64,000 nt of DNA from an uncultured Clostridia bacterium (GCA_947626145.1 CANQRB010000004.1:29250-93249); one strand, 5' to 3'; shown: positions 4,721 to 33,246, counted from the first letter of the stretch. Numbers and translations are program-made. Notes: generated by a model from the letters alone, not told the origin.

Positions 4721-7700
4721 TTACAGCTCGGGAATGAAGTCGACTTCCGCACCAGCGGAATCAGCTTCGGTCTCGGCGATTTCGGTACTTACAAACTCAA
4801 TCTCAACACTGTCTAGGCTGAAGATCATAGCACCATCAACGCCTTCACAAGTAACATCATTGCCATTGATAGTTATCTTATAGAACAAGCCCTCAGTTTG
4901 AGTTGCTGTTTTATCTGTGCCGTTTACATCAACAATGGTAGATACCTTGAAGCCTATACCATTATCGTAAAGGGCTTTATCCAGTTCTATCGTTGTTCCT
5001 GCTTCACTGCTTGTAACTTTAATGAATTCTTTACGAACATCGTTAATAGCGTTCTTGTCATCAAGAACAACACCGCCGGTGCTGAGAATAGCAATGGCCT
5101 GTTCAAGCTTTTTTGCATCAAATTTTTCACGATTCAAAGTATCTTTGTAGTCGCTAAGGTTGGTTTTGATATCGTTAGCAAGCAACTCATAAAGAGATGC
5201 TTCAGCTTGAGCGATGAGATAACCGCTATTTGTGTCAACAAGCCTTGCCATATAGTAAATATTGCTTCCATTGTCTTTTTTCGGAATAACAAGTACAGAC
5301 GGAGCCCCGTTACTGAGGACAGAAGTGTCTATAGTCGTATTGTCTACTCCTTTACCGCCTTTTTCATTTGTTGTTTCGTGAAGATCAATAGCTGTAACCT
5401 TTAGCGTCTGTCCATCATAAGCACCATCGGCAGTAAAAGTTATGCCCAAAGTATCCGCACTGTCTCCATCAGCAGCAAAGCCAAGTCCAGCGGTGAGTGT
5501 AGCCGTCGCAGGAACGTCCACGCCACCTGCATATACGGCAAACTTGCTGATCTCAAGGTCTCCTTCACTTGAGGGATTGTTTCCAAAGAAGGAAACACCG
5601 TCAATTCCTCCATTGTTACGGAATGGTATGCCCATCAACATTTTACCTTCACCGGATGATTCATTCCGCACGGAAAGATTATATGTGTTATTTGTAACAT
5701 CAACATCTACGATAAAAGCATATGACTGATTAAGCTCCATTGTCATAAATTCTTTCTTGGCGGCGTTGTCTCTGTAGTAAATTTTGTCGCCACCGATAGG
5801 CAAATGAATACGAAGATTTGTGCCATACGCATCTGTCCCTTTTGCGTCGTACTTAAAAAATCCGATAGCGTTGTCGCCGTTTTGTTTGGCAACAAGAGTA
5901 AATGCGACGGTAAATTTGTCTGATATTTCTTTAGGGAAACGATACATTTCACTAAATGTCCTACCCTGATTGTTGATTACTGAGTTAGAACCAACGGTCA
6001 TGCCGGCTGTAGGATCAAATGTCTTTTCATGAGTCACAACATTTGCCGTCAAGGTAAGGCCTGTATCGGCGATAGTGCCGGTAGTATCCTCCCATGTTAC
6101 GGGCAATTCCTCGGCTGTCACTGCATCACTGTCAACAGTGGTCTTAATTGCGGTGGGAAGAACATAGTTATATCCTTCGAGAGTATTAATGTCAATGCTG
6201 TCGGGGCCGGTGATGGTGGCAGTTAACTCGGCCTCAACCTCAATTTCCTTAGTAGTGGTTGCGATAATAGTATCCTGATCAGACGCCTTATTGGTATAAT
6301 ATTTATCTGCTATGCGACGATTAGTAATAATCTTGCCATCACTGGCGGCACGGCCTTGATCAACGACCTGGTTTTCTGCAACTTTTACCGTTTCGCCTAC
6401 CTTGCCGGTCTGTTTCTCGATAGTGGCTACAGTTTGACCCTTGTATTTGGCATTTATGACGTAATCCACATCGTCGTTTTCAAGATTGCTAAGTTTGGTT
6501 ATTTTGAAGTTGTCGATGATGGGCTGAGTATCGTTACCGACCCAAGCGGTCTTAAAGCCCAGTTTTGTCTGCTTGGAACCGGTCCATACAATAAACTGCT
6601 TCGTCTCAAATTGATTGAGAGTGTGCAGGGTCATCTGCTGAAGCTTTTGGCTGGTATTGTCATTTTTGTCGGCATACCAATCAGCGCAGGGGTCGTCGGC
6701 CTCGCCGGTGCCATTGGCATCGGTTACGTAAAGCCACATATACTGATCCTTTGCCTGCTTGGTTGGCATGACGTCAAAGCTCACGAGATAACGGGTATTG
6801 GGGTCAACATTCCAAGTGCCGCCGAAAACAGTTCCGGCCGCACCGGCAACGCCCTTGAGCCAAAGAGCCTGGCTTCCTTCGGTCTTTTGGTTCTCACCCT
6901 TGACTATCTCATATTCTTCATTGGGTATATTAGTCCAACCATTAATACCATTTTCAAAGCCGTCGTTGGTGCCGGTAACAGTTCCCTCGACATTTTTTAC
7001 ATGTTTGGCGGTAATGTCGTAGTTGTTATTACCTTCACTCAAAGTGATCTCTTTGATTTCGGGGAGAGCAAGTTCATAAAGCTTTTCATTTTTAACAAGG
7101 TACTTGTTGCAACTGTTGAGAGAAAACTTATCTCCGGCAAAGTATTCCTTTTTATTTCCGTTTGGATTAGACTCCTCCAAAACATTTCCGCCGTCCATTA
7201 TGCGAACATTGACAGCAGCGTCGGGAGACAAAACCTTAACATCAGCAAGGTAAGCATCCTTAAGAGAAGCTACACCCCCAGTGGCATCTCCGCCGTGGAT
7301 ATTGGAGAGCAGAAAAGCGACCTTACCACCAACTATCTTATCGGCAGGAATACGGAGCTGAGACGTCACCTCAGTCCATGAATTAGATACATTTGATGTA
7401 CTCAGTGTTCCGACAAGAACTCTGCCCTCAACAGCAGTATCGAGCAGAGCGTTGTTCTCAGCTTCAACAGCTGCAGGGTCAACAGCAAAAATGGCAGCTT
7501 TAGATATACGGTCGTTAGCACCATTGTTAGACCATGCCTGAACCTTAAAGGTAGCCCGAAGAATTTGACCGGCAGCAACATTAGTGTCTTCTGGCAGTGT
7601 GAATTCAGCAAAACCCGCACGGTTATTTGAGAAAGACACTATGGCAGACTGAGCGTCTTGAACTTTGTATTCGTCAAATGTTTGCGGACGCTTAGCATCG

Positions 7701-7825
7701 GAATTAAAATTCCAACCATAAAGCTTATCTGCGGCGATATCTCCATCAGCCGCAAAAGCTACGGGCACTACTGTCAATACCATGGCCAAAACCACAGCCA
7801 ATGACAGAACTTTTTTGATTCTCAT
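4721..7825 (-). CDS. Large secreted multidomain surface protein (signal peptide; CBM4/9-like carbohydrate-binding and bacterial Ig-like regions); no SLH or LPXTG anchor seen
   Basis: N-terminal signal peptide MRIKKVLSLAVVLAMVLTVVPVAFA|AD. GFENGINGW...W segment typical of CBM_4_9. Ig-like beta-rich segments. Strong RBS GGAGGTAACAAAAATG. Confidence 0.7.
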   Translation of the reverse strand: MRIKKVLSLAVVLAMVLTVVPVAFAADGDIAADKLYGWNFNSDAKRPQTFDEYKVQDAQSAIVSFSNNRAGFAEFTLPEDTNVAAGQILRATFKVQAWSNNGANDRISKAAIFAVDPAAVEAENNALLDTAVEGRVLVGTLSTSNVSNSWTEVTSQLRIPADKIVGGKVAFLLSNIHGGDATGGVASLKDAYLADVKVLSPDAAVNVRIMDGGNVLEESNPNGNKKEYFAGDKFSLNSCNKYLVKNEKLYELALPEIKEITLSEGNNNYDITAKHVKNVEGTVTGTNDGFENGINGWTNIPNEEYEIVKGENQKTEGSQALWLKGVAGAAGTVFGGTWNVDPNTRYLVSFDVMPTKQAKDQYMWLYVTDANGTGEADDPCADWYADKNDNTSQKLQQMTLHTLNQFETKQFIVWTGSKQTKLGFKTAWVGNDTQPIIDNFKITKLSNLENDDVDYVINAKYKGQTVATIEKQTGKVGETVKVAENQVVDQGRAASDGKIITNRRIADKYYTNKASDQDTIIATTTKEIEVEAELTATITGPDSIDINTLEGYNYVLPTAIKTTVDSDAVTAEELPVTWEDTTGTIADTGLTLTANVVTHEKTFDPTAGMTVGSNSVINNQGRTFSEMYRFPKEISDKFTVAFTLVAKQNGDNAIGFFKYDAKGTDAYGTNLRIHLPIGGDKIYYRDNAAKKEFMTMELNQSYAFIVDVDVTNNTYNLSVRNESSGEGKMLMGIPFRNNGGIDGVSFFGNNPSSEGDLEISKFAVYAGGVDVPATATLTAGLGFAADGDSADTLGITFTADGAYDGQTLKVTAIDLHETTNEKGGKGVDNTTIDTSVLSNGAPSVLVIPKKDNGSNIYYMARLVDTNSGYLIAQAEASLYELLANDIKTNLSDYKDTLNREKFDAKKLEQAIAILSTGGVVLDDKNAINDVRKEFIKVTSSEAGTTIELDKALYDNGIGFKVSTIVDVNGTDKTATQTEGLFYKITINGNDVTCEGVDGAMIFSLDSVEIEFVSTEIAETEADSAGAEVDFIPEL

Positions 7826-7878
7826 TTTTGTTACCTCCTTAAAATTTTGCTAAAAAATAAATCCTCGATTTCATGCGC

Positions 7879-7906
7879 ACTTCCTATAAGAAATGCTATC
7901 GGAAGT
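7879..7906. repeat. Left recombinase-site-like inverted repeat: 10-bp arms around an 8-bp asymmetric core (ACTTCCTATA-AGAAATGC-TATCGGAAGT)
   Basis: 27/28 identical to the reverse complement of the site at 8187-8214. The asymmetric 8-bp core is exactly reverse-complementary between the two sites. Confidence 0.6.
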
Positions 7907-8023
7907 AAATTTATGCCGTTTTACGGCAATATTTACAACATAAAAATGAAAATTAGAAATTATTTGTTGAAATTGCACAATTACTCACAACAATTTTGTA
8001 CATTATGGATAAGGGAAAGATAT

Positions 8024-8052
8024 TGACTTTTTTATGGCAAAAGTAGTATAAT
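8024..8052 (+). promoter_or_regulatory. Consensus sigma-A type promoter TTGACT-17-TATAAT on the plus strand, inside the IR-flanked segment
   Basis: -35 TTGACT at 8024-8029, exact 17-nt spacer, -10 TATAAT at 8047-8052. Confidence 0.6.
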
Positions 8053-8186
8053 TAGATTATAAAATTTCATGTGCCGATCATAGGAAAGCCTCGGAAAAAG
8101 GCCGTGTTAAGCCGGATTTGCCCGGTTGACGGCGCAGAGGTCGACTGCAAAGCCAGCCTTGGAGCGATGAATGGCCGCTCGGTTTT

Positions 8187-8214
8187 ACTTCCGATAGCAT
8201 TTCTTATCGGAAGT
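8187..8214. repeat. Right recombinase-site-like inverted repeat (ACTTCCGATA-GCATTTCT-TATCGGAAGT)
   Basis: Perfect 10-bp inverted arms; core GCATTTCT is the reverse complement of the left-site core AGAAATGC. Confidence 0.6.
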
Positions 8215-8235
8215 TCGATGAAATCATACAAAAAA

Positions 8236-8283
8236 GCACCTGTGACAAGCTCTTTATCGTGAGCTTGCCGCAGGTGTTTTTTT
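8236..8283 (+). terminator. Intrinsic terminator: about 16-bp imperfect stem (gcacctgtgacaagctc...gagcttgccgcaggtg) then T7
   Basis: Hairpin 8236-8276 followed by TTTTTTT at 8277-8283; sits just downstream of the right IR and before the ECF sigma gene. Confidence 0.55.
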
Positions 8284-8318
8284 AATGTGATGCCGTTATT
8301 TTCGATATAACGCAAAAA

Positions 8319-8344
8319 GCAGCCGATTTCGGCCGCTTTTTTTA
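8319..8344 (+). terminator. Second intrinsic terminator (gcagccga-ttt-cggccgc then T8)
   Basis: GC-rich hairpin followed by TTTTTTTT; A run upstream. Confidence 0.45.
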
Positions 8345-8425
8345 TTATACGCCTACGTCGCAATCCGTTCTTTGGTATCATAGTTGTATAGGCTTGTATT
8401 TCGCATAAAAAATTTAAAATTTTCC

Positions 8426-8453
8426 TGCAACTTTTCGATCCTTTGCAACGAAT
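8426..8453 (+). promoter_or_regulatory. Candidate ECF-type autoregulated promoter (-35 TGCAAC, 17 nt, -10 CGAAT) just upstream of the ECF sigma gene
   Basis: The TGCAAC -35 resembles the SigM/SigX/SigW class; a second TGCAAC copy lies nearby; about 15 nt from the RBS. Confidence 0.3.
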
Positions 8454-8471
8454 ATATTAAGTGGAAGGAGG

Positions 8472-9041
8472 TTGAGCGGATTGGCGGCGGAGCACGAGGA
8501 ACTTAAATGGATAAGGAAAATCAAGCTGTTCGGTTCAAAAAAAGACGCCGACAGTCTGGTTCGGTCTTATTACGATGAGATTTACAGATATGTATCCCGA
8601 CAGCTTCCCGACAGCGGGGACGCCTGGGATCTTACTCAGGAAATCTTTATATCCATGCTGCGCTCCATAAAGTCGTACAAAAAAGAACGGTCGTCCTTCC
8701 GCACATGGCTGTACCGCATCGCCACAAACAAAATTATAGACTGCCGCCGGAAAAAGGTTCCGACGACTGCCGCGCCCGACGAAGTCAATACAGCCGACGA
8801 TGCCGATTTTATAAGTCAAATCGCCCAGGCCGAGCTGCTGAAAAAAATCGAGGGCTATGTCAACCGCTTTTCGCCCGCCGTGCAGCAGATATACAGACTG
8901 CACATTTACGGGGATTTTACCTTCGCAAGCATCGCTTCAGCCCTGGACATCCCTGAGGCCACCGTAAAATCCCACTATTACAGATTGCAGAAAAAAATAA
9001 GAGAGGAGTTTGGCGATGAGTACAGAGACGTTGTCGAATGA
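8472..9041 (+). CDS. ECF (sigma-70 region 2/4) RNA polymerase sigma factor; TTG start at 8472 or 8481
   Basis: Sigma-70 region 2 (YYDEIYRYVSRQLPDSGDAWDLTQEIFISM) and region 4 HTH (FASIASALDIPEATVKSHYYRLQKKI). AGGAGG lies 9 nt before the TTG at 8481. Confidence 0.85.
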   Translation: MSGLAAEHEELKWIRKIKLFGSKKDADSLVRSYYDEIYRYVSRQLPDSGDAWDLTQEIFISMLRSIKSYKKERSSFRTWLYRIATNKIIDCRRKKVPTTAAPDEVNTADDADFISQIAQAELLKKIEGYVNRFSPAVQQIYRLHIYGDFTFASIASALDIPEATVKSHYYRLQKKIREEFGDEYRDVVE

Positions 9042-9759
9042 CGAAAAGGATATTGCCATAAAAAAAATTTTGGACGCGGGCGTCGTTACCCCTTGGGACA
9101 GGGTGAAAAAAAACTTGCTGGCGCTCCGTTTCTGCGCGCCGAAGCACATATTTTTCGACATGGGCGACTGCCTGTTTTTGGGACTGCTGGCGGCAGCGGC
9201 AGGTTGGATATTGCTTTTGAATATAAACGGCGGCTTTGTCTGCTGTTCCCTGCTGCTCGCCTCCCCTTTTGCATATATGATAACCTGCCTTCTGACGGCG
9301 TGGAAGGAGCGTCAACGGCGGATGTATGAAATAAAAATGACCTGCTATTTTAATCTGCATCAGGTGACGGCCCTCCGGATGCTGTATTTCAGCGGCCTTA
9401 ATTTAATTGTAAATTTTGTCATGATTCTGCTCGAACGCCGAATTTCTATTTTGGGAGCTTTGTTCTGGCGGCTTTTGGGCATTTCCTTTTCCGGCATATT
9501 TATTTACGGAGTTTTGCTAATAGCTTTCCAAATAAAAGTCCATGGCAGAATGTCCGTTATCTTACCGCCTGTTTTTTGGCTGATGATAAACAGCGTGATA
9601 TTCATTGTATGGAACGAAAGAATAGAATTTATAATATTAAATTTATCCGTTTATATAGTATATCTTGTGACGGCGGGACTGCTCATGCTGTATATTGCGA
9701 TGCTATACACCTATATGACGAATTGGAGAGGAGAAACAGACTATGCTTTCAGTGAATAA
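9016..9759 (+). CDS. Polytopic membrane protein, candidate anti-sigma factor (YxlC-like position), translationally coupled to the sigma gene
   Basis: Overlaps the sigma stop by 26 nt; AGGAG 7 nt before ATG 9016; multiple TM helices after a short cytoplasmic N-terminus. Confidence 0.5.
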   Translation: MSTETLSNDEKDIAIKKILDAGVVTPWDRVKKNLLALRFCAPKHIFFDMGDCLFLGLLAAAAGWILLLNINGGFVCCSLLLASPFAYMITCLLTAWKERQRRMYEIKMTCYFNLHQVTALRMLYFSGLNLIVNFVMILLERRISILGALFWRLLGISFSGIFIYGVLLIAFQIKVHGRMSVILPPVFWLMINSVIFIVWNERIEFIILNLSVYIVYLVTAGLLMLYIAMLYTYMTNWRGETDYAFSE

Positions 9760-10600
9760 CGTCACAAAAAAATACGGTGATTTCACTGCGCTTCAAGACA
9801 TAAACATTGAGTTTGACCGAGGAGTTTACGGACTGCTGGCGCCCAACGGAGCCGGAAAAACCACTCTGATGAAAATGCTGGCCACCCTTTCCTTCCCAAC
9901 AAAGGGGGAGATTTTGTGGAACGGCACGGATATATTTCAACTGGACGAGGAATACCGTGATATTCTGGGCTTTTTGCCGCAGAAGTTCGGCTATTACAGG
10001 AATTATTCCCCGCGCAGGTTCTTGGGCTACATGGCGGCGTTAAAAGGCATAGAAAAAAACGGGGCGGAGGAAAAAATCGACTCACTTCTTAAAAAGGTCT
10101 TTCTCGAAGAATTTGCGGATAAAAAAATGAAGCAGTTTTCAGGGGGTATGCTCCAACGGGTAGGCATCGCTCAGGCTCTGCTCAACGACCCCGAGCTGCT
10201 TATTCTGGACGAGCCCACCGCCGGACTTGACCCAAAGGAGCGGGTTCGCTTTCGCTCCATGCTCCACTCTTTGGCCGGTGAACGCATAGTTATTCTGTCA
10301 ACTCATATCGTTTCCGACATTGAAACAATAGCTGATAAAATAATTTTGCTTAAGGATCATAAACTGCTTTGCTGTGCCGCGCCCACAAGGCTGTGCTCCG
10401 CGTTGCAGGGCAAAATTTTTGAGATACCCGCCGACAGGCATATTGACGCGCCCTGTGAAATTCTGTATGAGCGCCAGACCGGAACAGGGACCGTCCTGCG
10501 TATTTACAGCGAGTCACGCCCTGACGGAGCAACGGAAACGGCCGCGAACCTTGAGGACGTGTTCCTGACGGTTTACCGTGACGAAAGGAGACAAAAATGA
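9743..10600 (+). CDS. ABC transporter ATP-binding protein
   Basis: Walker A GLLAPNGAGKTTL, ABC signature LSGGMLQRVGIAQAL, Walker B LLILDEPTAGLD. Confidence 0.9.
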   Translation: MLSVNNVTKKYGDFTALQDINIEFDRGVYGLLAPNGAGKTTLMKMLATLSFPTKGEILWNGTDIFQLDEEYRDILGFLPQKFGYYRNYSPRRFLGYMAALKGIEKNGAEEKIDSLLKKVFLEEFADKKMKQFSGGMLQRVGIAQALLNDPELLILDEPTAGLDPKERVRFRSMLHSLAGERIVILSTHIVSDIETIADKIILLKDHKLLCCAAPTRLCSALQGKIFEIPADRHIDAPCEILYERQTGTGTVLRIYSESRPDGATETAANLEDVFLTVYRDERRQK

Positions 10601-11751
10601 AACTGATAAAATCGGAAATTAAGAAGCTTGTATTTAACAAAAGCCTGTATTTTTTTCTGGCCATTTGCCTGACGTTAAATCTTGCGCTGATCGCTGTGAC
10701 GGGCGGCGAACGTTCTTATATAAAATATATTGGAGAAATCACGGCGAACGCCGGAGACAGGATCAACCGTTCTTTTCTTAATTATGTCAGCGCTTTGCCG
10801 GACAGCGAGTTCATCGACCGCCTCACAGCCGCCTGTGCCGGTGCGGGAAAAATCTTCGACAGCTTTGACGCGGCGGCATTGGGCAGAAACTGGTATTATG
10901 ATGAATACTATATAAAGTCCTCTTTCCTTCATAGAATGTTATATGAGAAATACGAAAAATTAAACAATTCAGTGAAATTGCTGAATTCCGAAAACGCCGA
11001 TCTGTCCGTTTACGGGGCCGACGCCACGGGGAATTTCCATGAGGCTCTGTTTACATATACACTCAAAGCGCTGATGATAGAGGGATTTATACTTATTTCT
11101 CTCCTTACGATCCACATAATGGGCATTGAACGTCAAAGCCTTACCGAGTCCATAATATATTCCAGCCGAAGAGGTCGGGCCCTTGTCAAAGACAAAATGT
11201 GCGCCGCCTGGATAGTGAATACCGGCTGCATCTTGCTGCTGTACGGGTCAACGCTGGCGTTTTTCTTTTCGGTATGGGATATCGGCGGCCTTTGGGAAGC
11301 CAACGTGTCAAGCTGCTTCCACCTTGTGACGGACGTTGATCTGCCGTTTCTGAAGCCTTTCCTCACTTGGACAAGCTTCACGGTAAGAGAGTATTTCACC
11401 GCGACTCTGCTTTTGGAAGCCGCATTGCTGTTGGTGTGGCAGCTCATATCCTCCTGCATCGGAATTTTGTGCGGCAGTTCCGCCAAAGGATTTCTGACGG
11501 CGGCGGCCTGCCTTACGGGTCCGTATTTTCTGCCGTTTGTTTTTAAATCGCTGAGCTGTGGGTGGTCATTTTATATTAACACCTTTTCCATCTCAATGTT
11601 AACGCTTAATCAGCATTTGTGGTTTACGGACATGGGTGTTTACGAGCTGCTGCCGTGGCAGGAAACCTTGTCGGCCGGAATACATTTATCCGTGTGTGTT
11701 CCGCTCTTTTTTACGGCAATTAAAATATTCAAAAGAAGGGAGCTGATGTAA
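10597..11751 (+). CDS. ABC-2-like permease / membrane protein
   Basis: N-terminal TM helix, large extracytoplasmic loop, then about five TM helices; 4-nt overlap with the ATPase stop. Confidence 0.6.
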   Translation: MKLIKSEIKKLVFNKSLYFFLAICLTLNLALIAVTGGERSYIKYIGEITANAGDRINRSFLNYVSALPDSEFIDRLTAACAGAGKIFDSFDAAALGRNWYYDEYYIKSSFLHRMLYEKYEKLNNSVKLLNSENADLSVYGADATGNFHEALFTYTLKALMIEGFILISLLTIHIMGIERQSLTESIIYSSRRGRALVKDKMCAAWIVNTGCILLLYGSTLAFFFSVWDIGGLWEANVSSCFHLVTDVDLPFLKPFLTWTSFTVREYFTATLLLEAALLLVWQLISSCIGILCGSSAKGFLTAAACLTGPYFLPFVFKSLSCGWSFYINTFSISMLTLNQHLWFTDMGVYELLPWQETLSAGIHLSVCVPLFFTAIKIFKRRELM

Positions 11752-12933
11752 ATGTTTGTCTGGGAGCTCAGAAAAGTTTGGACAAAGGAGCATATCTTAC
11801 TCATCGCCGCGGTCACGCTTCTTTTTTCTCTGACCTTTCTTGTACCGCCAATAAGGTCGGTGACTGTGACAGAAGAGGGCGAGGAAATCTTCTCCGCGAG
11901 GATGGGGATAATCAAGGAGTGGCTCAATAAATATGACACACAAATTACGCCTCAGGAATTTGAAGAGATAAAAAGGATCTATGATGAACGCCTTTCCGAC
12001 GGACAGGCTGTCATTTCAACGCAGCCCTATTTCGCGGAGAATAATGTGTTTACTTATGACGACTATCTTTCTTACGGTAATAACGCCCTGAACGGCGCGG
12101 AAGGCTACTCCTACGACAGCTTCCGCAAAATGCGTGAGTTCATATCCGAAGGCACCGATTATTCCGCCATGTATTATCAGGAGTATGAAGATCTCATACA
12201 TAAATATGTTGACGGCAGCTCGCGAAAAGCTCGTTATATTGAAACGCTCCTGTCCGGCAAAGCCGAAAAGGCCGCAATATCCGAGCTCGACACGCTTCGC
12301 CGAACCAAAGGCGTCGGCAGTCTGCTGCCCGGCGAACTTGTGTACGCCGCAAACCGTTACTATGTCAACCTCTCAATTTTGCTCATTATATTGGCGATGT
12401 TCATTTCCGGGCCTGTCATGGTCAACGATAATGCCAATAACATTCGGCCGGGGCAATACAGCAGCAAAATCGGTCTCAAAATATATCAGCGTCAGTATGC
12501 GGCCATGGCGGTTTCTCTTTCCGCACTTACGGCACTCATGCTCATCGGCAGCTTGACGCTTTGGCTTGCAGTCGGGGCCGGCCGCTTTTTCCAATGCGGC
12601 ATCTTTGCTTTTCAAATGATGGAAACGCCGGTGACGGGCGATCTATCGTTTGGCGTGTATTTGGTTTTGATTTCGGCGCTGATTTTTATTCTTGTAAACG
12701 GTGTTGGCGGGCTTATGTTTTATCTTTCCGGCACGAGCCGCAATTTTATCGAGATGCTGATGAAATCGATACCCGCCGCGGTTTTTGGGATAATGCTGTC
12801 GCTTTCTTTAAATGACCTGTTTCTCAATACAAACTTTCTTTTCCGTATGACAGGGATAAGAGGTGTGGAGATTTTTCCGGTTATTTTGATTTTCATATTT
12901 GGATTATTGATAAATTTAAAAGGGATACGTTAG
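11752..12933 (+). CDS. Second ABC-2-like permease / membrane protein
   Basis: Same architecture as the preceding gene; starts immediately after its stop; RBS AAGGGAG. Confidence 0.55.
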   Translation: MFVWELRKVWTKEHILLIAAVTLLFSLTFLVPPIRSVTVTEEGEEIFSARMGIIKEWLNKYDTQITPQEFEEIKRIYDERLSDGQAVISTQPYFAENNVFTYDDYLSYGNNALNGAEGYSYDSFRKMREFISEGTDYSAMYYQEYEDLIHKYVDGSSRKARYIETLLSGKAEKAAISELDTLRRTKGVGSLLPGELVYAANRYYVNLSILLIILAMFISGPVMVNDNANNIRPGQYSSKIGLKIYQRQYAAMAVSLSALTALMLIGSLTLWLAVGAGRFFQCGIFAFQMMETPVTGDLSFGVYLVLISALIFILVNGVGGLMFYLSGTSRNFIEMLMKSIPAAVFGIMLSLSLNDLFLNTNFLFRMTGIRGVEIFPVILIFIFGLLINLKGIR

Positions 12934-12997
12934 TAATGCGGTATGGAGAAGCTGTCTGTTGGGCTTGGCGAAGTTAGCATGGTATCACCTCAAAACG

Positions 12998-13040
12998 AAA
13001 CGGACGCTCCGCTTGGAACGTCCGTTTGATTATCTTTTTA
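12998..13040. terminator. Hairpin (aaacggacg...cgtccgttt) with a weak T-rich tail between convergent operons
   Basis: 9-bp stem and 12-nt loop, then gattatcttttt. Confidence 0.4.
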
Positions 13041-13092
13041 CTCTACCATTTTAACACATATATAACTCTCATTCAATCACATTTACTCTCAT

Positions 13093-13404
13093 CTATTCTA
13101 ACTTTTTTTGATAATCGCTTTTAGCATAAACGACTCTCGTAACAGTTATCAGCTTCTCGCGCTCATCCACACGATAAAACATAATATAATTCTTAATCAG
13201 CAGTTTACGGTACTCATATTTTAAAGTTTGGAGTGGGCGATAAACAGGCATGGAATACGGAAAAACTCTGATTTTTTCCGCTTCGGTTATAAACTCCTCA
13301 GCTAACCGTCCGGCCGCAATGGGATTTGATAATGTTTTGCCGATATATGTCACAATGTTAATCATATCCTGTTGGGCGATAGGCTGAAACTCCAAATCAT
13401 ACAT
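13093..13404 (-). CDS. RelE/ParE-family type II toxin
   Basis: About 100-aa protein matching the ParE/RelE plasmid-stabilisation toxin pattern; ATG shares an 8-nt overlap (ATGTATGA) with the antitoxin stop. Confidence 0.75.
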   Translation of the reverse strand: MYDLEFQPIAQQDMINIVTYIGKTLSNPIAAGRLAEEFITEAEKIRVFPYSMPVYRPLQTLKYEYRKLLIKNYIMFYRVDEREKLITVTRVVYAKSDYQKKLE

Positions 13405-13675
13405 TTTCGGTTTCTCCAATCGCCTCGCGCATATTTTTCAAGACTTCTTTTGGTGAAAACCGCTTGTTTGTCATTTCCGCCTCATACTCCGCCTCCTTAA
13501 GCTTAAAGTACACTTCGCTTTCAAACTGAAGATTTTCATAAGCTTCCATACTCATAACAACCATGTCGCCAAAACCGTTTTTTGTTAAGAAAACGGGCTG
13601 CTTTGTTTCGTGGACTGTCTTGGAAATATCCGCAAATTTATTTCTTAAGTCCGAAACGGGTCTTATTAAATTCAT
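13397..13675 (-). CDS. Phd/YefM-family antitoxin
   Basis: MNLIRPVSDLRNKFADISKTVHETKQPVFLTKNGFGDMVVMSMEAYENL is a classic Phd/YefM N-terminus; RBS AGGAGG 7 nt before ATG. Confidence 0.75.
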   Translation of the reverse strand: MNLIRPVSDLRNKFADISKTVHETKQPVFLTKNGFGDMVVMSMEAYENLQFESEVYFKLKEAEYEAEMTNKRFSPKEVLKNMREAIGETENV

Positions 13676-13704
13676 AAAAATTCCTCCTATCATATTATGA
13701 TTGT

Positions 13705-13728
13705 ATTTTAGCACAATTATGCTAAAAT
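13705..13728 (-). promoter_or_regulatory. 24-bp near-perfect palindrome (ATTTTAGCACAATTATGCTAAAAT) overlapping the putative TA promoter (TTGCAA-17-TAAAAT); likely antitoxin operator
   Basis: 22/24 palindromic. The -10 TAAAAT and -35 TTGCAA, read on the minus strand, overlap it. Confidence 0.45.
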
Positions 13729-13777
13729 TGCAAGAGGAAATTTTTATTTTTATAAAGTGATTTCCTTGCTAAAGCTA

Positions 13778-13813
13778 CAAAAAATGAGCTATGGAGGGTT
13801 GGCTCCATAGCTC
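13778..13813 (-). terminator. Intrinsic terminator for the SLH-protease gene (11-bp perfect stem gagctatggag/ctccatagctc then ATTTTTTG on the minus strand)
   Basis: Perfect hairpin followed by a T run in the minus-strand reading direction, about 115 nt past the stop. Confidence 0.6.
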
Positions 13814-13927
13814 GATAACTTACGTAGTGCCTATATTGTACAGTCTTGCGCCTGACGCACCGCGGTCGCAAAGCTTCCTATTCGAGGGCAAATGACCTGA
13901 TAAGTGATAGCCTATTGCAAATCTAAA

Positions 13928-16900
13928 TTATAAGGCTATCATACCATCAGTTTCATCATTACCATTAAGTTCTTCGTCCTTTTTGCCTGTGTTTTTATTC
14001 TCAGATATATCTCCTTCGAAAGCTGTTTCGACGGACTCTTCATTTTTAAGTTCTTTGCCTCCAAACTCATTACTGATATCCTTTATTGGCACTTTGTCTG
14101 GCAAGGATTCAATAGAAACTAGTGACTCTTCATCATGATAATTTATTAATATGCCATTAGATATTTTGAATACAGGCCAAGAGTTTCCTGATTGGTTAGA
14201 AGAAACTTTGTACACCTCAACTAAGTTATTTCCATTATATAACTCTACCTGTGCACCCGAAGTCGCCCAAGTACCTTCACCGTAGAACCAGTATACATAA
14301 TATTCATATGTGCTATTTATGTCCACTTCAAATGTAACGGTTTCCGGCCCTTCTCCATCGGTATCATCCACATCCAAATTGGCCACCAAATCTCCTGATG
14401 CATTATATCCGTTTCTGTTAGAAAAATATACATGAAAGTTTCTATGGTCTGAAAGGCTTCCAACCAAATGAGAGTCTAAGTCGCTGGGATTCATGTTCCA
14501 ACGAAGAACTGCCCTATATTGATTGCTAGTCATCGAAGGAGAAATGCTTCCATTTTGATTGGCAACTTCTCTTCCCCCAATTATTGTGACGTTGAAATAT
14601 CCGGTGGTGTATCCGTACTTTTCCATTTCTATTGTATAATACCCAGAGGATGCAGTTAGTGAATATTCACCACTACCGTTAGTTATTGTTGAAGATATTT
14701 CCTCACCTTTACTACTATTCCACCCGTTTCTCAACCTGACTATTACGCCATCAATAGGATATCCGGTTGTTGCGCTTGTAATAACGCCGCTTATTTTTCC
14801 TTCACCAGACTTTACAAGTTTAACAAGTTCTTCTGTTTGGTTGTCTTTTGTTACTGTCGCAAGCCCGTAGAAAGGCATATAACCGTCTTTTTCAATAACA
14901 ACAGAATATGTTCCCACATCAAGAGACAGTTCTTTTGCTCCCTCTGCGCCTATTTGAACTTTCCCAATCAAGAAATCATCATCAAGTATAGATATAGTTG
15001 CATCTTTTATAAATGTTTCATCTTCCGCATCAACAATTTGTATATAAAGAGTACCTCTATCCCCATATATACCAACATCATCAAATGCACGTTTTATAGT
15101 CATTTTTTCCGCTTTAGACAATCCCTGAGTATCAGCTTGAAGCAGTACATTTCTCCTTACGGTTTTAAAGTTAGAATTTGCACTGAAGCCCTTGCCCAAC
15201 GAACCATACCATAGGTCTATAAGCTTAGACATTGAAATGGCCGGAAGACTATAAGAGGGATAGCCTTGTGACATTAAATATGCAGCATGAGAAATTACTG
15301 ATGAATTCGTGTGAGCAAATACTGATTTATTACCAGTATTAGTGCACCAATTAGTTCCACCAACTTTACTGGGCTTATGGCAGGAAGATGGATCCTTAAC
15401 ATTTCTTAATGGTCGCCAGTCCTCCCCTATGGTATAGTTATTATCATCAACGAACCATCCAAAGATATCTGCGTATGCTTCGTTGATTGCATAAGATATA
15501 TGACCATTACTGTGATCGTGACTAAGTCCATTCCCTGTCTTAAACTGAACTACTCCATGAGTGTACTCATGAGCAATAATATCAAGTCCGCTGGCCGTAG
15601 TAGTTTGGAGATTACTGTCGTTATTACTATTATCATAAAAATAGAATTCTTTGTTGCCGCCTGTCCAACACGCATTACTACTGCCTCCAAATTTATGAAC
15701 AGTTACTTTAATAGGATATCCATTCCCGTCCACAGAGCGTCTGCCCAAAGTGTCCGCATACCAATTATATACATCTATCATATTGGTGTATGCAGAAATA
15801 GCCGTTTTATCTCGCCATACATTAAATTCACTGCCAACTCTACTATTAACAAGTCCCCCATCATACATTTTAATGTTTCTCTCTGAATCTTCCATATAGT
15901 AGAATAACCAATCCCATTGTTTAAATTGTACGGGGAATGACACTTCGGTATTTTTTTCATTTTCACCGCTACCAGTTACTCTTTTGTCGCCCCAGTCTAA
16001 AATATTGCTTCCAGAATAAATTACGGAACCAGTATATCCATTTATGATTACAGTTTCGTCAATATTGTCGCCAGACAAACAAATTACATATGCTACAACA
16101 GGACTTTGCTCATATTCATCAAGAGAATATATAACTACCTCTGTTGATACAACATCTACTGATTCTTGCGGGTACTGACTTTTAGCAATATTTATTGCTT
16201 CACTTTCTGATATCACGGGGTCGGTATTTACATCAACTAAGTTTGCAGATGCAACTACATCGGATGTTAATGAAGTAGATGTTCCATTATTATCTACAGA
16301 CACGGTTAAATTTCTATCATAAACGTCAAGCCCATTATATTGTTGACTAAAAGTATAATCAGTTCCGTATTTGCCAGAATTTGTCACAGATATATTTAAT
16401 TCTTTTATTGGATCGTTCATGCCAAGAATTGTTCGAACTCCGTATATTGCATAAAGAGCATCGTCTGGGGAGTTTATATCAATATCACTTATTTTACCAC
16501 TTATCGCTGTTACTTGGGATCCCTCTTCATTGTATTCTATATAAGTATCAAAATCTGCATCCTTATTCATTTGCTCTATATCGACAACTGAATTATTAGG
16601 AGACTCATTAATATTAAAGTTACTTTCTTTTATAACCGTAACTTCAAAAGATTTTGTTAAATTATAGTCTCCTTTCGATATGCTAGCGTTGAGTCTAACA
16701 TTTTTATTCTCATTTATCGGACGTGAGACGGAACCGCTTTCTGAAACTACATTAATATTGTTACTTTCCCATGATATATCTACTGTTTCAATCATTGTTG
16801 GTAAAATCAAATCATGAGTAACAGATTCTTTACAGTCACCTTTACTATATGTAATTTCAAGAGTATCATATGCATATTGAACTATCGCTTTATTAAATTC

Positions 16901-18259
16901 ATTCTCATCATATTCTACCCACCTTGCATACAAAGTTAATTTATTGTTAACGGCCAATTTAAAATCATAGATATTTTCGCAATCCCTATCAGTATACCAG
17001 CCACCAAACAAATAATCTTTACGTTCAGGGTCTTTGGGAATTGTAACATTATTTCCAGCTAAAATCTCTTGACTTTCAGGCGCATCCTCTGCCCCTTCAT
17101 AATTCAAATCAAAGGTGACAGTGTAAACGCCGTCCTCCTCAATTTCTTCTTCCCAACCAGCATACAGAGTCAAGCGCTCGGTAATTTCCGTGTTCTCAAA
17201 ATCAAACTCATAAACGCATTCCTCATCTGTGTACCAGCCCGTGAAGATATAGCCCTCTCTTTCGGGATCATCGGGACGCTCTGCATAATCGTTCTTCTTT
17301 ACTTTCTGGGTAGCCGGAGGATTTTTCGCTCCTGAATAATTCAGGTCAAATTTTACATTGTATCTCGTGGTGCCGCCGGAGCTTCCGCCACCACCGCCAC
17401 CACCGGTGGAACGACTTATCGTATATTCAACGCTCATCACATCGCTGACAAGAACATCATCTTTTACCGCGATTGCCTTCAGTGTCGCGGTAGACAGTAT
17501 ATTTATATTGCCACCTGTGTATTCCTCGCTGTCAACTGTGGGCTCTGTTCCATCGGTCGTATAGTAAATCTTAACGCCCTCGGTGTCGCTCTTAAGCGTT
17601 ACAAGCTGATTTACATAATATGTGCCCGCCTCAACGGACGCGACAGGGGCGGCTACCGTTGTGCGGAGACCGTTATAAACCATTACGGCAATGTCCCCAC
17701 GGGTAGAGGCTGATCCCTTTCTGCCCTTGAGGTTATCCGTTATACCGTTATCCTCAGCCGCTTTAATATAGCCGGCAGACCAATCATCAGGGTCGGATTC
17801 AACATCGTCGCCAAGACCGACGCCGCAAACCACCATCTTTATGGCCTCTTCATATTTGACGTCGTCATCCGGCATAAATCCGCCGCTACCGTTGCCGTTT
17901 ATTATCTCCTCTTTCGCGGCGACATTGATGTAGCCGCTGGCCCAGTGGTCGGCGGGAACATCGTCAAACTTTGTGGCGCCCTTGGAATTGCGGGCATCGT
18001 TCTCCTTGCCTATCATGCGGCATACTACCGCCGCCATTTCGGACCTTGTGATAGATTTATCCGCCCCAAATGTACCGTCGGCGTAGCCGGTGAAAATGTC
18101 GAGCTTTTCCAGAGCGAGAGCCGCCTCGGCGTAATACTCATTCCCCGTAACATCGGAAAAGACCGTGCCTGCGGCAAAAGCACCGATCGGCGCAAGCGAC
18201 AGTGTCATTGCCAAAACTAAAATGATGCTTAAAAATTTTTTCACGATTGTAACCTCCAA
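13928..18259 (-). CDS. SLH-domain-anchored thermolysin-like (M4) zinc metalloprotease. Order: signal peptide, 3 SLH, Ig-like, Listeria-Bacteroides-type repeats, PepSY/FTP propeptide, M4 catalytic domain, C-terminal beta-sandwich domains. Likely GTG start at 18244
   Basis: SLH repeats (FSDVTGNEYYAEAALALEKLDIFTGYADGTFGADKSITRSEMAAV...). GWYTD repeats. HEXXH as IIAHEYTHGVVQ plus downstream NEAYADIFG (thermolysin-type zinc ligands). Poly-Gly linker. GGAGGT lies 7 nt before the GTG. Confidence 0.85.
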   Translation of the reverse strand: MEVTIVKKFLSIILVLAMTLSLAPIGAFAAGTVFSDVTGNEYYAEAALALEKLDIFTGYADGTFGADKSITRSEMAAVVCRMIGKENDARNSKGATKFDDVPADHWASGYINVAAKEEIINGNGSGGFMPDDDVKYEEAIKMVVCGVGLGDDVESDPDDWSAGYIKAAEDNGITDNLKGRKGSASTRGDIAVMVYNGLRTTVAAPVASVEAGTYYVNQLVTLKSDTEGVKIYYTTDGTEPTVDSEEYTGGNINILSTATLKAIAVKDDVLVSDVMSVEYTISRSTGGGGGGGSSGGTTRYNVKFDLNYSGAKNPPATQKVKKNDYAERPDDPEREGYIFTGWYTDEECVYEFDFENTEITERLTLYAGWEEEIEEDGVYTVTFDLNYEGAEDAPESQEILAGNNVTIPKDPERKDYLFGGWYTDRDCENIYDFKLAVNNKLTLYARWVEYDENEFNKAIVQYAYDTLEITYSKGDCKESVTHDLILPTMIETVDISWESNNINVVSESGSVSRPINENKNVRLNASISKGDYNLTKSFEVTVIKESNFNINESPNNSVVDIEQMNKDADFDTYIEYNEEGSQVTAISGKISDIDINSPDDALYAIYGVRTILGMNDPIKELNISVTNSGKYGTDYTFSQQYNGLDVYDRNLTVSVDNNGTSTSLTSDVVASANLVDVNTDPVISESEAINIAKSQYPQESVDVVSTEVVIYSLDEYEQSPVVAYVICLSGDNIDETVIINGYTGSVIYSGSNILDWGDKRVTGSGENEKNTEVSFPVQFKQWDWLFYYMEDSERNIKMYDGGLVNSRVGSEFNVWRDKTAISAYTNMIDVYNWYADTLGRRSVDGNGYPIKVTVHKFGGSSNACWTGGNKEFYFYDNSNNDSNLQTTTASGLDIIAHEYTHGVVQFKTGNGLSHDHSNGHISYAINEAYADIFGWFVDDNNYTIGEDWRPLRNVKDPSSCHKPSKVGGTNWCTNTGNKSVFAHTNSSVISHAAYLMSQGYPSYSLPAISMSKLIDLWYGSLGKGFSANSNFKTVRRNVLLQADTQGLSKAEKMTIKRAFDDVGIYGDRGTLYIQIVDAEDETFIKDATISILDDDFLIGKVQIGAEGAKELSLDVGTYSVVIEKDGYMPFYGLATVTKDNQTEELVKLVKSGEGKISGVITSATTGYPIDGVIVRLRNGWNSSKGEEISSTITNGSGEYSLTASSGYYTIEMEKYGYTTGYFNVTIIGGREVANQNGSISPSMTSNQYRAVLRWNMNPSDLDSHLVGSLSDHRNFHVYFSNRNGYNASGDLVANLDVDDTDGEGPETVTFEVDINSTYEYYVYWFYGEGTWATSGAQVELYNGNNLVEVYKVSSNQSGNSWPVFKISNGILINYHDEESLVSIESLPDKVPIKDISNEFGGKELKNEESVETAFEGDISENKNTGKKDEELNGNDETDGMIAL

Positions 18260-19069
18260 TTTTATTTATTCACTTTCTAATTGCAGGAAAACACCGCCAC
18301 TGTATGTCACGCCCCCTTTTGGGCGAATTTGTCCTCCGTACAATAAAAAATGCGCAGCTCATCGGAGCCGCGCACGAAAAATGCTTAGCTCCGAATTTAC
18401 TGCGACATAAATTAATATAACACAAAAGAAACGCATTTTTGGCACTCGCTCATTAAAAATGCAACCAGAGCGTTACAGGAGCAGCATTTTTACCAATGCT
18501 AATGTTGCTCCGGTTAGCACTTTTATACGTTAGAATGTTAAAACAATGATAGAAAATATAGGTACTCAAAAAAGAGCGCAAAAAGCGAACTTAATAAGCG
18601 TTTCTATATTAATCTATGTCGCAAATAAAGTATACCACACATTTTTCCGGTTGTAAAGTGTTTTTTTTTCGTAAATGAATAATTTTTTATAACATATTCG
18701 CCGCGAAACCCATCTAGGCGCTTATCTTGCTGCTGAACGGCTCCCCGACTGTTTTACAAAAGAGTCGAACATTGCACAAATTCGTTCTTCGTAGGAAGGA
18801 GCTGCCACAACATTTCCCTCCTTTTGCTAAAAATTGTTCTTGGTCGGTTTTCCCCCCCTTTGTAATACCGGAACAATTTAAGTTATACAAAATCGGAAAT
18901 TTTTTTAAATTATCTGAAAAAGTCAAAATAAAAAGGACAGATTAATATCTATCATTCTCAGTATTCAATTACATCGCCTTTAAAAATCCCCTCCGGCGCA
19001 TGAGGGGGTTTACGCCGGAGAAAATTTTATATATCAAAGAGGCCCGTGCCTCTTAATTTTTGCGGCCGG

Positions 19070-19744
19070 TTATGCCTGAGTCGCGGCGTCCGTCTTGACT
19101 CTGCGGAAGCGCACCAGACCCGTACGGTGAAGGGCAACCATTATTGCCGGGATAAGCACAAGTTGAAGTATTATTCCGGGGATGGCGTTAAGCACCGCAG
19201 TCTGCGCAGGACAAAAAACCTGAAAAGATGTCGATTTCGCCTGACTTTGTTGGTCTATGTTGCATGGCGATCCGCTTCTGTGCAAGCTCAAAGATTTCTT
19301 CGTCAATTAACGGCTCATGCGTATTAGGTAAGAAATAGCGTTGTTCTGCCTCTTTTTCGACTTATACGAAACCTTGTGTGTTTTCTCAGTGATGATATGC
19401 CCTAAATACTTTTACCGTGTCAGGATGTCAAACAGCGTTTTCTCCGGCCATGTGTAAGGAGCGATCAAGGCTTTCTGATGTCGCGCATTCCTCGTCCGCT
19501 CATAACGTAATGCACCGATTGTCAAAACCTTGTTGTCGTCAAGCCATCGCTGAATATCGCACATCTGAGTATCCTTCACATACATGACGAAAATCTGCTT
19601 GACTATGAGATGTATCCGTATGGATATTCCCCGTTGACGTGCTCGCCCTTTTGAGTCCGCGCCTGCTTTGCGGCTCGGTGGTTGTCGCTCGGCATATTCT
19701 CTCGGATATGTGTCATGGCACACCCGCCGTATGGCTCGGCGCAA
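19070..19744 (-). pseudogene. Low-confidence gene fragments: a C-terminal membrane-protein remnant at 19070-19306 and an unidentified remnant at 19412-19744, inside a 2.4-kb region with no intact long ORF
   Basis: Only short, mutually overlapping ORFs on both strands; mixed GC; no RBS-supported starts. Confidence 0.2.
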
Positions 19745-20366
19745 AAGGGATGTGTCCTTTGTTGCTGTTATGATGCCTCGCTGTTATCTTGCGGGCAAAT
19801 TTGTCGAGGTTCGTACAGATGGGGAGTATCGGAAAGGGGGATTTATGCGCCGCTCCAGGTCGTCGGGTCAGTTCACCTGAAAAGTCAGAATTTTTGTAAT
19901 GAGCTTCGTTTCCAGTCTGCTGATCTTCGTCTACGCACAAATGAGGATTGCCATACTCGTCGTTTTCGATGTACACTGTATGATCCAGAATACCGAAAGC
20001 CCTGTCCTCTTTGAAATAACTGTCTCAGACTGAAAGCTGATTCATTACTTCAACAGGAAATTCGACAAAGAAAATCGCCTGCCTGCACATGGCAGGCGGG
20101 CGAAACGGAACTAACAGAAGTATTTACGTGATTTATGTGTTCATCTTCCTCGGCAGGGTATCCCGCTTGCTGGGTCAGACTTCTTTTGAGCGAAGAACCA
20201 TTGCCGGAATTTGTCGATATGGAATAGGCTTCATGGCGGCTACCTCCTGTTAGCCGCCATACCTGTTAGCCTGCAGTTTCTTCCCTTGTATCAAGAGAAA
20301 TGGCAGCCTATGAAAAACAAGCATATAACCAAGAGCAGCAGTATATAGGCTCTGCGTCTATGCGTC

Positions 20367-20513
20367 TTACTCTTTTACAACCTCGATCCGTAGGTGTTCC
20401 TCGTTAATCAGCGTTTTGCGTTTGCATTTGGGACAATACAACGGAAAGTTCTCCAGAATGGTATCTTCCAGTATTTTAATTCGTGTTTTGCTTTTACAAA
20501 CAGGACACAACAC
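20367..20513 (-). CDS. Cys-rich KTR-type small zinc-ribbon protein (about 48 aa, non-ATG start GTG/TTG)
   Basis: Translation (M)LCPVCKSKTRIKILEDTILENFPLYCPKCKRKTLINEEHLRIEVVKE: two CPxCK motifs with the typical KTRxK spacing. Confidence 0.5.
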   Translation of the reverse strand: MLCPVCKSKTRIKILEDTILENFPLYCPKCKRKTLINEEHLRIEVVKE

Positions 20514-20716
20514 CAAAACGCTTTTATTTACTCCGATTCGAACTACTCCCTGCGAATTGCAATAAGTGTTTTAAACTATTACCCTCAACAAAGCACAACA
20601 ACCAGATATTTCCTGACGGCAATTTTTTGCGAAATGATTCCCGTAATTATCGTCGATGCATTGCTGTGAGCAGGTATTTATTTTGTAAAAAGTCGTTGCT
20701 GCCCGTATTTTAATTT

Positions 20717-23917: not shown

Positions 23918-24625
23918 CTATCGTGGTTTCAGAGTATTTTTATTTTGTTGGGTCTTTTTTAAGAGGTTATCCATTCTCCGATCAAGTTCCGCGCTGAGGT
24001 TTGCGCACTGATAAAGTTCCTCAGCCATTTCCGGGGTAAATGCAGAATCCTTTTTATAACGAAGCTGATGTTCAAGGCTGGCCCAGAAATCCATCGCTAT
24101 CGTGCGCAGCTGAATTTCTACTTTCATCATCCGTTTTTCATGTGCCAAAAAGATCGGAATTGCTACAATCAGATGCAGACTTCTATATCCGTTGGGTTTC
24201 GGGTTTTTTATGTAGTCCTTTTTTTCAATCAGGGTAATGTCATCCTGTATGAGCAATGCCTCTGACAGCGCATAAACATCGTCCGGAAATGAGCAGATTA
24301 CTCGAACACCGGCAATATCGTTTAGATTTTCTTCTATAGAGGAAAGTGTGGGCGGGATGCCCCGCCGCTCCAATTTTTCTTTTATGCTGCGGGGATTTTT
24401 CAGTCTGGTTTTGATACTGCTTATCGGATTACGGTCGAATTCCAAAGAATATTCTTCATTCAACACATTGAATTTTGTTTCAATCTCCATCATGGCACAT
24501 TTGTAATAGGACATCAGGCGGATAAAAGGTACAGATTTTCTCTGCATCCAGTCGATTGTCTGATCGTCCACAATAGAGAGCATTCGTGTTTTTATATTTT
24601 CATCCTCTTGATTCCATTCAGACAT
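23918..24625 (-). CDS. Small alarmone synthetase (RelA/SpoT-domain GTP pyrophosphokinase, RelQ/RelP/YwaC-like)
   Basis: Single-domain RelA_SpoT synthetase motifs (GVRVICSFPDDVY...YRSLHLIV...EIQLRT). The track start is TTG; the likely start is ATG 24625 with AAGGAAG RBS. Confidence 0.8.
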   Translation of the reverse strand: MSEWNQEDENIKTRMLSIVDDQTIDWMQRKSVPFIRLMSYYKCAMMEIETKFNVLNEEYSLEFDRNPISSIKTRLKNPRSIKEKLERRGIPPTLSSIEENLNDIAGVRVICSFPDDVYALSEALLIQDDITLIEKKDYIKNPKPNGYRSLHLIVAIPIFLAHEKRMMKVEIQLRTIAMDFWASLEHQLRYKKDSAFTPEMAEELYQCANLSAELDRRMDNLLKKTQQNKNTLKPR

Positions 24626-24692
24626 TCTGATCTTCCTTTCCAAAAAACAAAGCTTGTTGGATCAATACCGGCTCTGCCGCTTTTCGCAGGTA

Positions 24693-26588: not shown

Positions 26589-26605
26589 AGTAATTCCATC
26601 CTTTC

Positions 26606-27406: not shown

Positions 27407-27409
27407 GGC

Positions 27410-33153: not shown

Positions 33154-33246
33154 TGGCGGAGAGAAAGGGATTCGAACCCTTGATCGGGGTTAACCGATAC
33201 ACGATTTCCAGTCGTGCGCCTTAGACCAGCTCAGCCATCTCTCCGC
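33154..33246 (-). tRNA. tRNA-Ser (anticodon GGA), class II with long variable arm, CCA encoded
   Basis: Minus-strand read GCGGAGAGATGGCTGAGCTGGTCTAAGGCGCACGACTGGAAATCGTG...GGTTCGAATCCCTTTCTCTCCGCCA: acceptor, D, anticodon (CU-GGA-AA), long extra arm, TΨC GGTTCGAATCC. Confidence 0.85.

Follow-up and report, generated by a model that had tools for sequence, protein, structure and literature searches.

An ECF230-type, autoregulated sigma factor/ABC exporter cassette with a candidate membrane anti-sigma protein in an uncultured Clostridia bacterium

How is a sigma factor of the extracytoplasmic function (ECF) class held in check when its gene overlaps that of a polytopic membrane protein and is followed by those of an ATP-binding cassette (ABC) transporter? 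The question is raised by a five-gene operon at positions 8481-12933 of a 64,000-nucleotide (nt) stretch from an uncultured Clostridia bacterium (GCA_947626145.1 CANQRB010000004.1:29250-93249; the whole stretch is referred to as the window), which a first-pass annotation had compared with the sigY-yxlCDEFG operon of Bacillus subtilis and had suspected of a part in surface remodelling. With high confidence the operon is an ECF230-type autoregulated exporter cassette; the SigY label is an analogy, not a membership, and the system is a further member of ECF230, a group that is catalogued but unstudied. The fuller reading, to which we give a probability of roughly 0.55, is that of a self-induced sigma/ABC-2 exporter cassette of the ECF230 type, horizontally moved as a unit, in which the membrane protein encoded directly downstream of the sigma gene (position +1) acts as the brake and sensor. 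The parts of the operon are:

8426..8456, + strand: ECF-type autoregulatory promoter, with the -35 element TGCAAC at 8426-8431, a 17-nt spacer and the -10 element CGAATATA at 8449-8456
8481..9041, + strand: ECF (group 4) sigma factor, 186 amino acids (aa), TTG start, with an in-frame alternative TTG at 8472
9016..9759, + strand: +1 membrane protein, 247 aa, ATG start, six transmembrane (TM) helices, candidate membrane anti-sigma/sensor
9743..10600, + strand: ABC transporter ATPase, 285 aa, related to DrrA, GldA and lantibiotic-protection ATPases
10597..11751, + strand: permease 1, 384 aa, predicted ABC-2 (type V) fold
11752..12933, + strand: permease 2, 393 aa, a permease 1 paralogue
12998..13039, + strand: probable operon terminator, stem AAACGGACG/CGTCCGTTT with a T-rich tail, shared with a convergent ParE gene

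The five co-directional open reading frames (ORFs) are tightly packed on the + strand from 8481 to 12933, with overlaps of 26 nt between the sigma and +1 genes and of 17 nt between the +1 and ATPase genes, an ATGA overlap at the ATPase/permease 1 junction, and permease 2 starting directly after the permease 1 stop codon. The annotated order of sigma gene, overlapping membrane protein gene, ATPase gene and two permease genes was found in place, as were the TTG start, the 26-nt overlap with the 9016-9759 gene and the promoter TGCAAC(8426-8431)-17-CGAAT(8449-8453). Both candidate sigma starts, 8472 and 8481, are TTG codons, of which 8481 is preferred because an AGGAGG box ends at 8471 and leaves a 9-nt spacer to it, because the gene caller also gave a 186-aa sigma factor on a near-identical contig (L007), and because this start aligns with the TTG starts of homologues. 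An AGGAG box stands 7 nt 5' of the +1 ATG, and no small membrane ORFs were seen between the +1 and ATPase genes. The operon probably ends at the hairpin 12998-13039, which was read from the sequence and is present in the minimum free energy (MFE) fold, and which a simple terminator scan had left unlisted.

The sigma factor carries the Sigma70_r2 (E 4e-20) and Sigma70_r4_2 (E 1e-7) domains, and NCBIfam placed it only in the general ECF superfamily (TIGR02937, 93 bits). A more specific relation emerged in the comparison with the ECF230s2 member WP_021623889.1 of Aneurinibacillus, with which it shares 40% identity over 173 aa (125 bits, E 1e-41), versus 25% identity and 37 bits for an ECF30 member of the same organism taken as a control. 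ECF230 was defined as a group of Firmicutes with a six-TM protein at +1 and an ABC transporter, labelled 'self-induced', whose promoters read AAAC(T/A)..TTT at -35 and TACGAATATA at -10 (Casas-Pastor et al., ECF classification 2.0; supplement of bioRxiv 10.1101/2019.12.11.873521; published in NAR 2021, PMC7826278). That definition is matched by the window and by 29 related loci, i.e. in a six-TM +1 protein (seen in both an AlphaFold2 model and a hydropathy scan), a downstream ABC transporter with the ATPase at +2 and the permeases at +3/+4, and a self-inducing promoter that runs TGCAAC-N17-(A)ACGAATATA in the window and TGAAAC.../TACGAATATA or AAAACTATTT.../TACGAATA in relatives. We filed the system under ECF230 because of the 40% identity of the sigma factor, the six-TM +1 protein, the ABC transporter and the -10 element of the TACGAATATA type. 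In the literature searched, no mention of ECF230 was found in the main text of papers, and the group is known from bioinformatics only.

The likeness to SigY was weighed on the same features. Were the operon a SigY-YxlCDEFG (ECF31) orthologue, a YxlC-type anti-sigma factor with small membrane partners would restrain the sigma factor and a YxlFG-type transporter would modulate it; the overall order of sigma gene, membrane protein gene(s), ABC ATPase gene and ABC-2 permease gene is the same, and the -35 element TG(A/C)AAC resembles the TGAAC of that group. However, the SigY equivalog model NF007216 gave the sigma factor 69.4 bits, short of its cutoff of 194 and less than the 80.8 bits of the SigW model; the closest solved structure is SigW (5wuq). 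The definition of ECF31 further pairs a two-TM anti-sigma factor (+1) with a YxlD homologue (+2), behind a TGAAC...CGT promoter (bioRxiv 10.1101/2019.12.11.873521), whereas here +1 is a 247-aa six-TM protein and +2 is the ATPase; the sigma sequence agrees with ECF230, as does CGAATATA in the -10 position. SigY orthology was rejected on the model score, the mismatch of the +1 and +2 genes and the -10 element, and we regard it as highly improbable. What stands of the proposed parallel is the general logic, namely an autoregulated ECF sigma factor, membrane regulator(s) and an ABC ATPase/ABC-2 permease within one operon to which the regulon is essentially confined; the kinship with SigY fell, with no YxlC- or YxlD-like partner found, and in place of a two-TM YxlC that needs YxlD at +2 the cassette has a single six-TM +1 protein and two large permeases.

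The distribution of the promoter motif speaks for autoregulation. Across clades the common motif is TG(A/C)AAC-N17-CG(A/T)ATA, the rest of the upstream regions being wholly different. In its strict form the motif matched once in the 64-kb window (0.1 expected) and exactly once per locus in 26 related loci, always just 5' of the sigma gene and nowhere else in their flanks of up to 20 kb; three more distant loci have AAAACTATTT...TACGAATA(T)A in its place. A looser form gave six matches in the window against 5.6 expected, i.e. the chance level, none of them 5' of the start codons of two giant secreted protein genes that flank the operon. The confinement of the motif to its own operon, in the window and in the related loci, bears out that the promoter is autoregulatory in type, and one motif per locus, with one in the window, means that locally the sigma factor has its own operon as regulon. 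A promoter with positive feedback should have a negative regulator to match, and within the cassette only the +1 protein qualifies.

A word-indexed search with the 247-aa +1 protein returned 29 relatives only, none of them named and none with a Pfam domain, and an exhaustive profile search with the +1 family returned 448 clusters at 50% identity, nearly all of 240-260 aa. We read 29 loci, ranging from close (~60% identity in the +1 protein) to distant ones (22-30%), and the order sigma, +1, ATPase, permease, permease recurred in all related loci whose length allowed it to be seen, with a sigma/+1 overlap of 8-38 nt where genes had been called, permease 2 at the same position in all complete loci, and an ATPase 60-81% identical across related cassettes. 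With the patterns used, the cassette was present in 16 of 185,579 species; the hosts among species-representative genomes were Lachnospiraceae, Oscillospiraceae/Oscillibacter and one member of the Eggerthellaceae (Actinobacteria), a largely Firmicutes-type range, and no homologue of the +1 protein was found in a plasmid collection. The genes on either side of the cassette are unrelated between loci; among them are housekeeping genes and a Bce-like pump accompanied by VanY and a two-component system.

Recombinase genes were noted beside some cassettes. In L001, a tyrosine integrase with DUF6809 and small Sigma70_r4-like ORFs lies at 5227-6683 and 12582-13057 (seen in L001-L003), and in L009 a large serine recombinase adjoins the cassette at 7446-9317. 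These neighbours, as read from the sequence, suggest that the cassette is carried on integrative elements. The window cassette itself is inside a low-GC stretch of ~29 kb (~4400-33150; GC ~0.44, range 0.38-0.48, vs ~0.57, range 0.53-0.63, outside), which ends at a tRNA-Ser(GGA) gene (33154-33244, - strand). This stretch has the look of an acquired island; besides the cassette it holds the two giant protein genes, a toxin-antitoxin pair and a two-component system. Because order and promoter recur while the neighbours are unrelated, and because recombinases lie nearby and the window copy sits in a low-GC island, we take the cassette for an autoregulated, mobile and self-contained unit; its spread into gut Clostridia and one Eggerthellaceae genome on mobile DNA is new relative to the catalogued ECF230.

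What, then, is the +1 protein? Its model is confident (pLDDT 89, pTM 0.84) and places two to three N-terminal helices (residues 8-45) before six TM helices that are joined outside by loops of only 3, 7 and 2 residues. In a Foldseek search with this model the type V ABC permease class ranked first, without reaching significance (best E 0.39, TM-scores 0.36-0.44). We rate an ABC-2 (type V) permease fold as probable for the +1 protein, though not settled. Profile comparison of the +1 and permease-1 families gave no significant match, and profile searches of PDB sequences with either family gave nothing. The 45 residues before the first TM helix would be cytoplasmic, as judged by the predicted type V topology and the shortness of the loops and not by charge (8 K/R, 7 D/E). 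This segment bears a family-wide motif, P-x3-E-K-x3-I-x3-I-L-x2-G, which has no counterpart in permease 1, and two of its residues, E10 and I18, are conserved at 90% or above across 72 diverse members. In the model, the near-invariant residues, E10, I18, F46, E98 and R121 among them, are cytoplasmic or intramembrane in position. The protein thus resembles a membrane anti-sigma factor in being encoded at +1, in having the sigma gene directly upstream in 29 of 29 loci, and in an N-terminus that is probably cytoplasmic.

The ATPase matches ABC_tran (E 3e-28) with Walker A (APNGAGKT), signature (FSGGM), Walker B (LLILDE) and H-loop intact; its best NCBIfam matches, drrA (181 bits), GldA (180) and lantibiotic protection ATPase (160), are all below the family cutoffs. 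Permease 1 is modelled less firmly than the +1 protein (pLDDT 75.6), as a first TM helix, a helical extracytoplasmic insert of ~110 aa and five more TM helices, with PmtD as the best structural match and a transmembrane domain of the type V fold. The permease 1 and permease 2 families align over their C-terminal TM region (hhalign probability 96.9%, E 1.6e-10). Pfam, its ABC2_membrane families included, had no match to either permease, to the +1 protein or to 72 and 30 relatives; a permease profile search added only three new proteins, and a distant match, P0217, carries PF12698 (E 3.5e-4, 18% of the query). The earlier description of the permeases as ABC-2-like is accordingly backed by predicted structure, Pfam being silent. 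The predicted ABC-2 folds of the +1 protein and permease 1, together with the paralogous permease pair, would also be new relative to the catalogued ECF230.

Among known transporters, the cassette is closest to the type V exporters (PmtCD, NosFY and LanFEG-type immunity pumps), by way of the predicted match of permease 1 to PmtD. LanFEG systems likewise have one ATPase gene and two different permease genes, and in BceS/BceAB a sensor without an external domain is encoded beside the transporter. The cassette differs from type V exporters and Bce-type systems in having no family membership at the sequence level, a sigma factor instead of a two-component system as regulator, and the ~110-aa permease insert. 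Among known sigma regulators, the ECF118/ECF211 systems (such as Sig(PspX) from the planosporicin cluster) also have a six-TM anti-sigma factor at +1 with ABC2_membrane_3 and ABC_tran nearby, but theirs has a recognisable N-terminal anti-sigma domain (zinc-binding in ECF118), of a kind not detected here, and they belong to Actinobacteria and use other promoters. NrsF/OsrA (ECF16, DUF1109) offers a precedent for a six-TM polytopic +1 protein that is a genuine anti-sigma factor; it senses by periplasmic cysteines, whereas the +1 protein of the cassette has no DUF1109 match and almost no external loops.

On these grounds the following course of events may be proposed. A low basal level of sigma factor would transcribe the operon from its own promoter, TG(A/C)AAC-N17-CGAATATA, as promoter and operon structure, read from sequence and conservation, indicate. 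Through translational coupling, the +1 protein would be produced alongside the sigma factor and would tether it to the membrane via the conserved N-terminal helices on the cytoplasmic side. Since the +1 protein has no external domain, a predicted ABC-2 fold and conserved residues within the membrane or on the cytoplasmic face that would contact the ATPase, it would probably sense within the membrane or through the ATPase/permease complex and not by an outside ligand; in analogy to Bce-type systems, which sense by way of their transporter, the load of substrate on the pump could set the sigma factor free. Free sigma factor would boost the ATPase and a heterodimeric permease pair, which would expel or remove the inducer, most likely a membrane-active peptide or another envelope-directed toxic molecule, and so close the loop. 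The cassette would act locally and on itself only, unwired to the invertible promoter candidate and the giant surface proteins nearby.

Several points weigh against the ECF230 reading with the +1 protein as brake and sensor. The first-pass annotation had expected an anti-sigma signature in the membrane protein; no known anti-sigma domain was found by Pfam/NCBIfam (E <= 0.01; zf-HC2/ZAS, RskA, DUF4179, NrsF/DUF1109 and similar were considered) in the +1 protein or in 72 family members, and the predicted structure looks ABC-2 permease-like. The conservation and synteny of the +1 gene are those also expected of a plain third transporter subunit; membership in ECF230 was judged on one member sequence and the published motif, not on the official group hidden Markov model; and the idea of peptide export rests on a weak structural and ATPase-family resemblance together with one resistance-island context (L005). 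The annotation had itself held that its view would fall if the membrane protein lacked such a signature and the sigma factor belonged to a different ECF group without transporter partners: the signature is missing and the group is another, yet that group does have transporter partners.

If the +1 protein were a membrane subunit of the transporter and nothing else, i.e. a homodimeric third or accessory transmembrane domain served by the same ATPase, the sigma factor would have to be controlled by transcription, proteolysis or an unlinked regulator. The predicted type V fold and the lack of a detectable anti-sigma domain in the 72 members agree with this, and so does the most conserved +1 segment after the second TM helix, WKE...E at residues 96-105, which presumably lies where ABC-2 permeases carry the ATPase-coupling helix. 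The authors of the ECF classification voiced the same doubt, having seen two ECF230 +1 proteins fused to ABC_tran, and left the anti-sigma nature of these proteins to future work (bioRxiv 10.1101/2019.12.11.873521); none of ten longer +1 family members tested here was fused to a sigma factor or to ABC_tran. Conversely, the +1 family was never seen without a sigma gene directly upstream, the genes overlapping; its conserved cytoplasmic N-terminal motif is family-specific; the cassette already has a full permease pair; and a self-activating ECF promoter without a linked negative regulator would be unusual. We therefore hold a subunit-only role to be possible but rather doubtful, and put an anti-sigma/sensor role of the +1 protein at about even odds. 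Both roles might also be united, the +1 protein being a dual-purpose subunit of ABC-2 fold that would dock on the ATPase and sequester the sigma factor via its N-terminal helices, with release coupled to the transport cycle ('flux-sensing'); this is offered tentatively, as a minority view.

ECF sigma factors are a major class of signalling proteins, and many of the catalogued groups, ECF230 included, have never been experimentally studied. For the +1 protein the model suggests the fold of a transporter subunit, while its coupling to the sigma gene and its conserved, probably cytoplasmic N-terminus are as expected of an anti-sigma factor. Should both hold, the compact and mobile five-gene cassette would make a tractable model for transport-coupled sigma activation and a candidate module of resistance or immunity, spread horizontally in gut Clostridia, and a dual role would make a subunit of the transporter the anti-sigma factor of an ECF pathway; should neither hold, the operon would be an ordinary inducible ABC exporter operon.

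It remains to ask whether the surroundings of the operon, which had prompted the idea of surface remodelling, have any bearing on it. The relevant features are:

4721-7825, - strand: secreted protein gene, 1034 aa, left of the operon
8230-8284 and 8314-8345: two strong A-tract/stem/T-tract hairpins, which would insulate the operon from the promoter at 8023-8052
13093-13714, - strand: ParE toxin/Phd-YefM antitoxin pair, convergent with the operon and lying between it and the right-hand giant gene
13928-18259, - strand: secreted SLH/M4-peptidase gene, 1443 aa, with SLH, Listeria-Bacteroides repeats, thermolysin-type M4 and CarboxypepD_reg/PEGA

An inverted repeat of 34 nt (7876-7909/8184-8217, 94% complementary) ends 209 nt upstream of the ECF -35 element and encloses a sigma-70 promoter, TTGACT-18-TATAAT (8023-8052, 11 of 12 positions), which now fires rightward; the region 7866-8227 is a candidate invertible promoter. 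The placement of the operon between two giant secreted proteins and after the switch is approximately right, but the ParE/Phd pair intervenes on one side and the repeat is 209 nt from the -35 element on the other. That the operon belongs to a phase-variable surface-remodelling unit, in which the switch would control the operon and the sigma factor the giant secreted proteins, would accord with its adjoining this near-consensus promoter and its position between genes for very large secreted/SLH proteins. The hairpins at 8230-8345 (MFE -55 kcal/mol, z = -8.1, 0 of 200 shuffles folding as well), however, put two strong terminators between the switch and the operon promoter; the sigma motif is absent 5' of both giant genes and elsewhere in the window; a flipped 8023-8052 promoter would face the left-hand 1034-aa gene and not the operon; and no conserved adjacent or surface-protein gene was seen in the sampled cassettes, in which the repeat was not searched for. 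Control of the operon by the switch was rejected on the terminators, the motif distribution and the unrelated neighbours elsewhere, and the link to surface remodelling did not hold up; we consider such a unit very unlikely and, on these grounds, regard the adjacency of switch and operon as apparently incidental.

The switch was followed in other sequences as well. On contig L007, which is 99.8% identical to the window over 7746-14751 and diverges completely left of 7746, its orientation is the same as in the window. In JGI metagenome contigs, a collection that lacks the locus, the left junction of the switch gave 0 matches in the inverted and 0 in the forward form, and among the genes of the window none for a recombinase was identified. 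The left-hand gene of L007 (1-229) encodes 1188 aa, against 1034 aa in the window, with only the N-terminal ~26 residues in common. The sequence divergence suggests that the left-hand giant is a variable surface protein.

Inside the invertible segment and 3' of its promoter, 8055-8185 is GC-rich and strongly structured (z = -5.6 for the fold of 8055-8290) and has no Rfam match; as the segment now lies, it would be transcribed into a short RNA with its end at the 8230-8284 terminator. An Rfam-type search of the window returned only the tRNA at gathering score, and nothing credible in 7800-8500, where a riboswitch or leader was sought. Right of the SLH/M4-peptidase gene, ~2.4 kb (18260-20700) hold no ORF above 110 aa, with a fragment at 19412-19744 (- strand) without a Pfam match, and are possibly decayed mobile-element DNA. 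Farther on are a gene for a small alarmone synthetase with a RelA/SpoT domain (23918-24643) and, on the - strand at 24819-28228, a non-canonical chaperone cluster of an Hsp70 of 598 aa, a DnaJ-domain protein of 266 aa and a DUF5685 protein of 272 aa.

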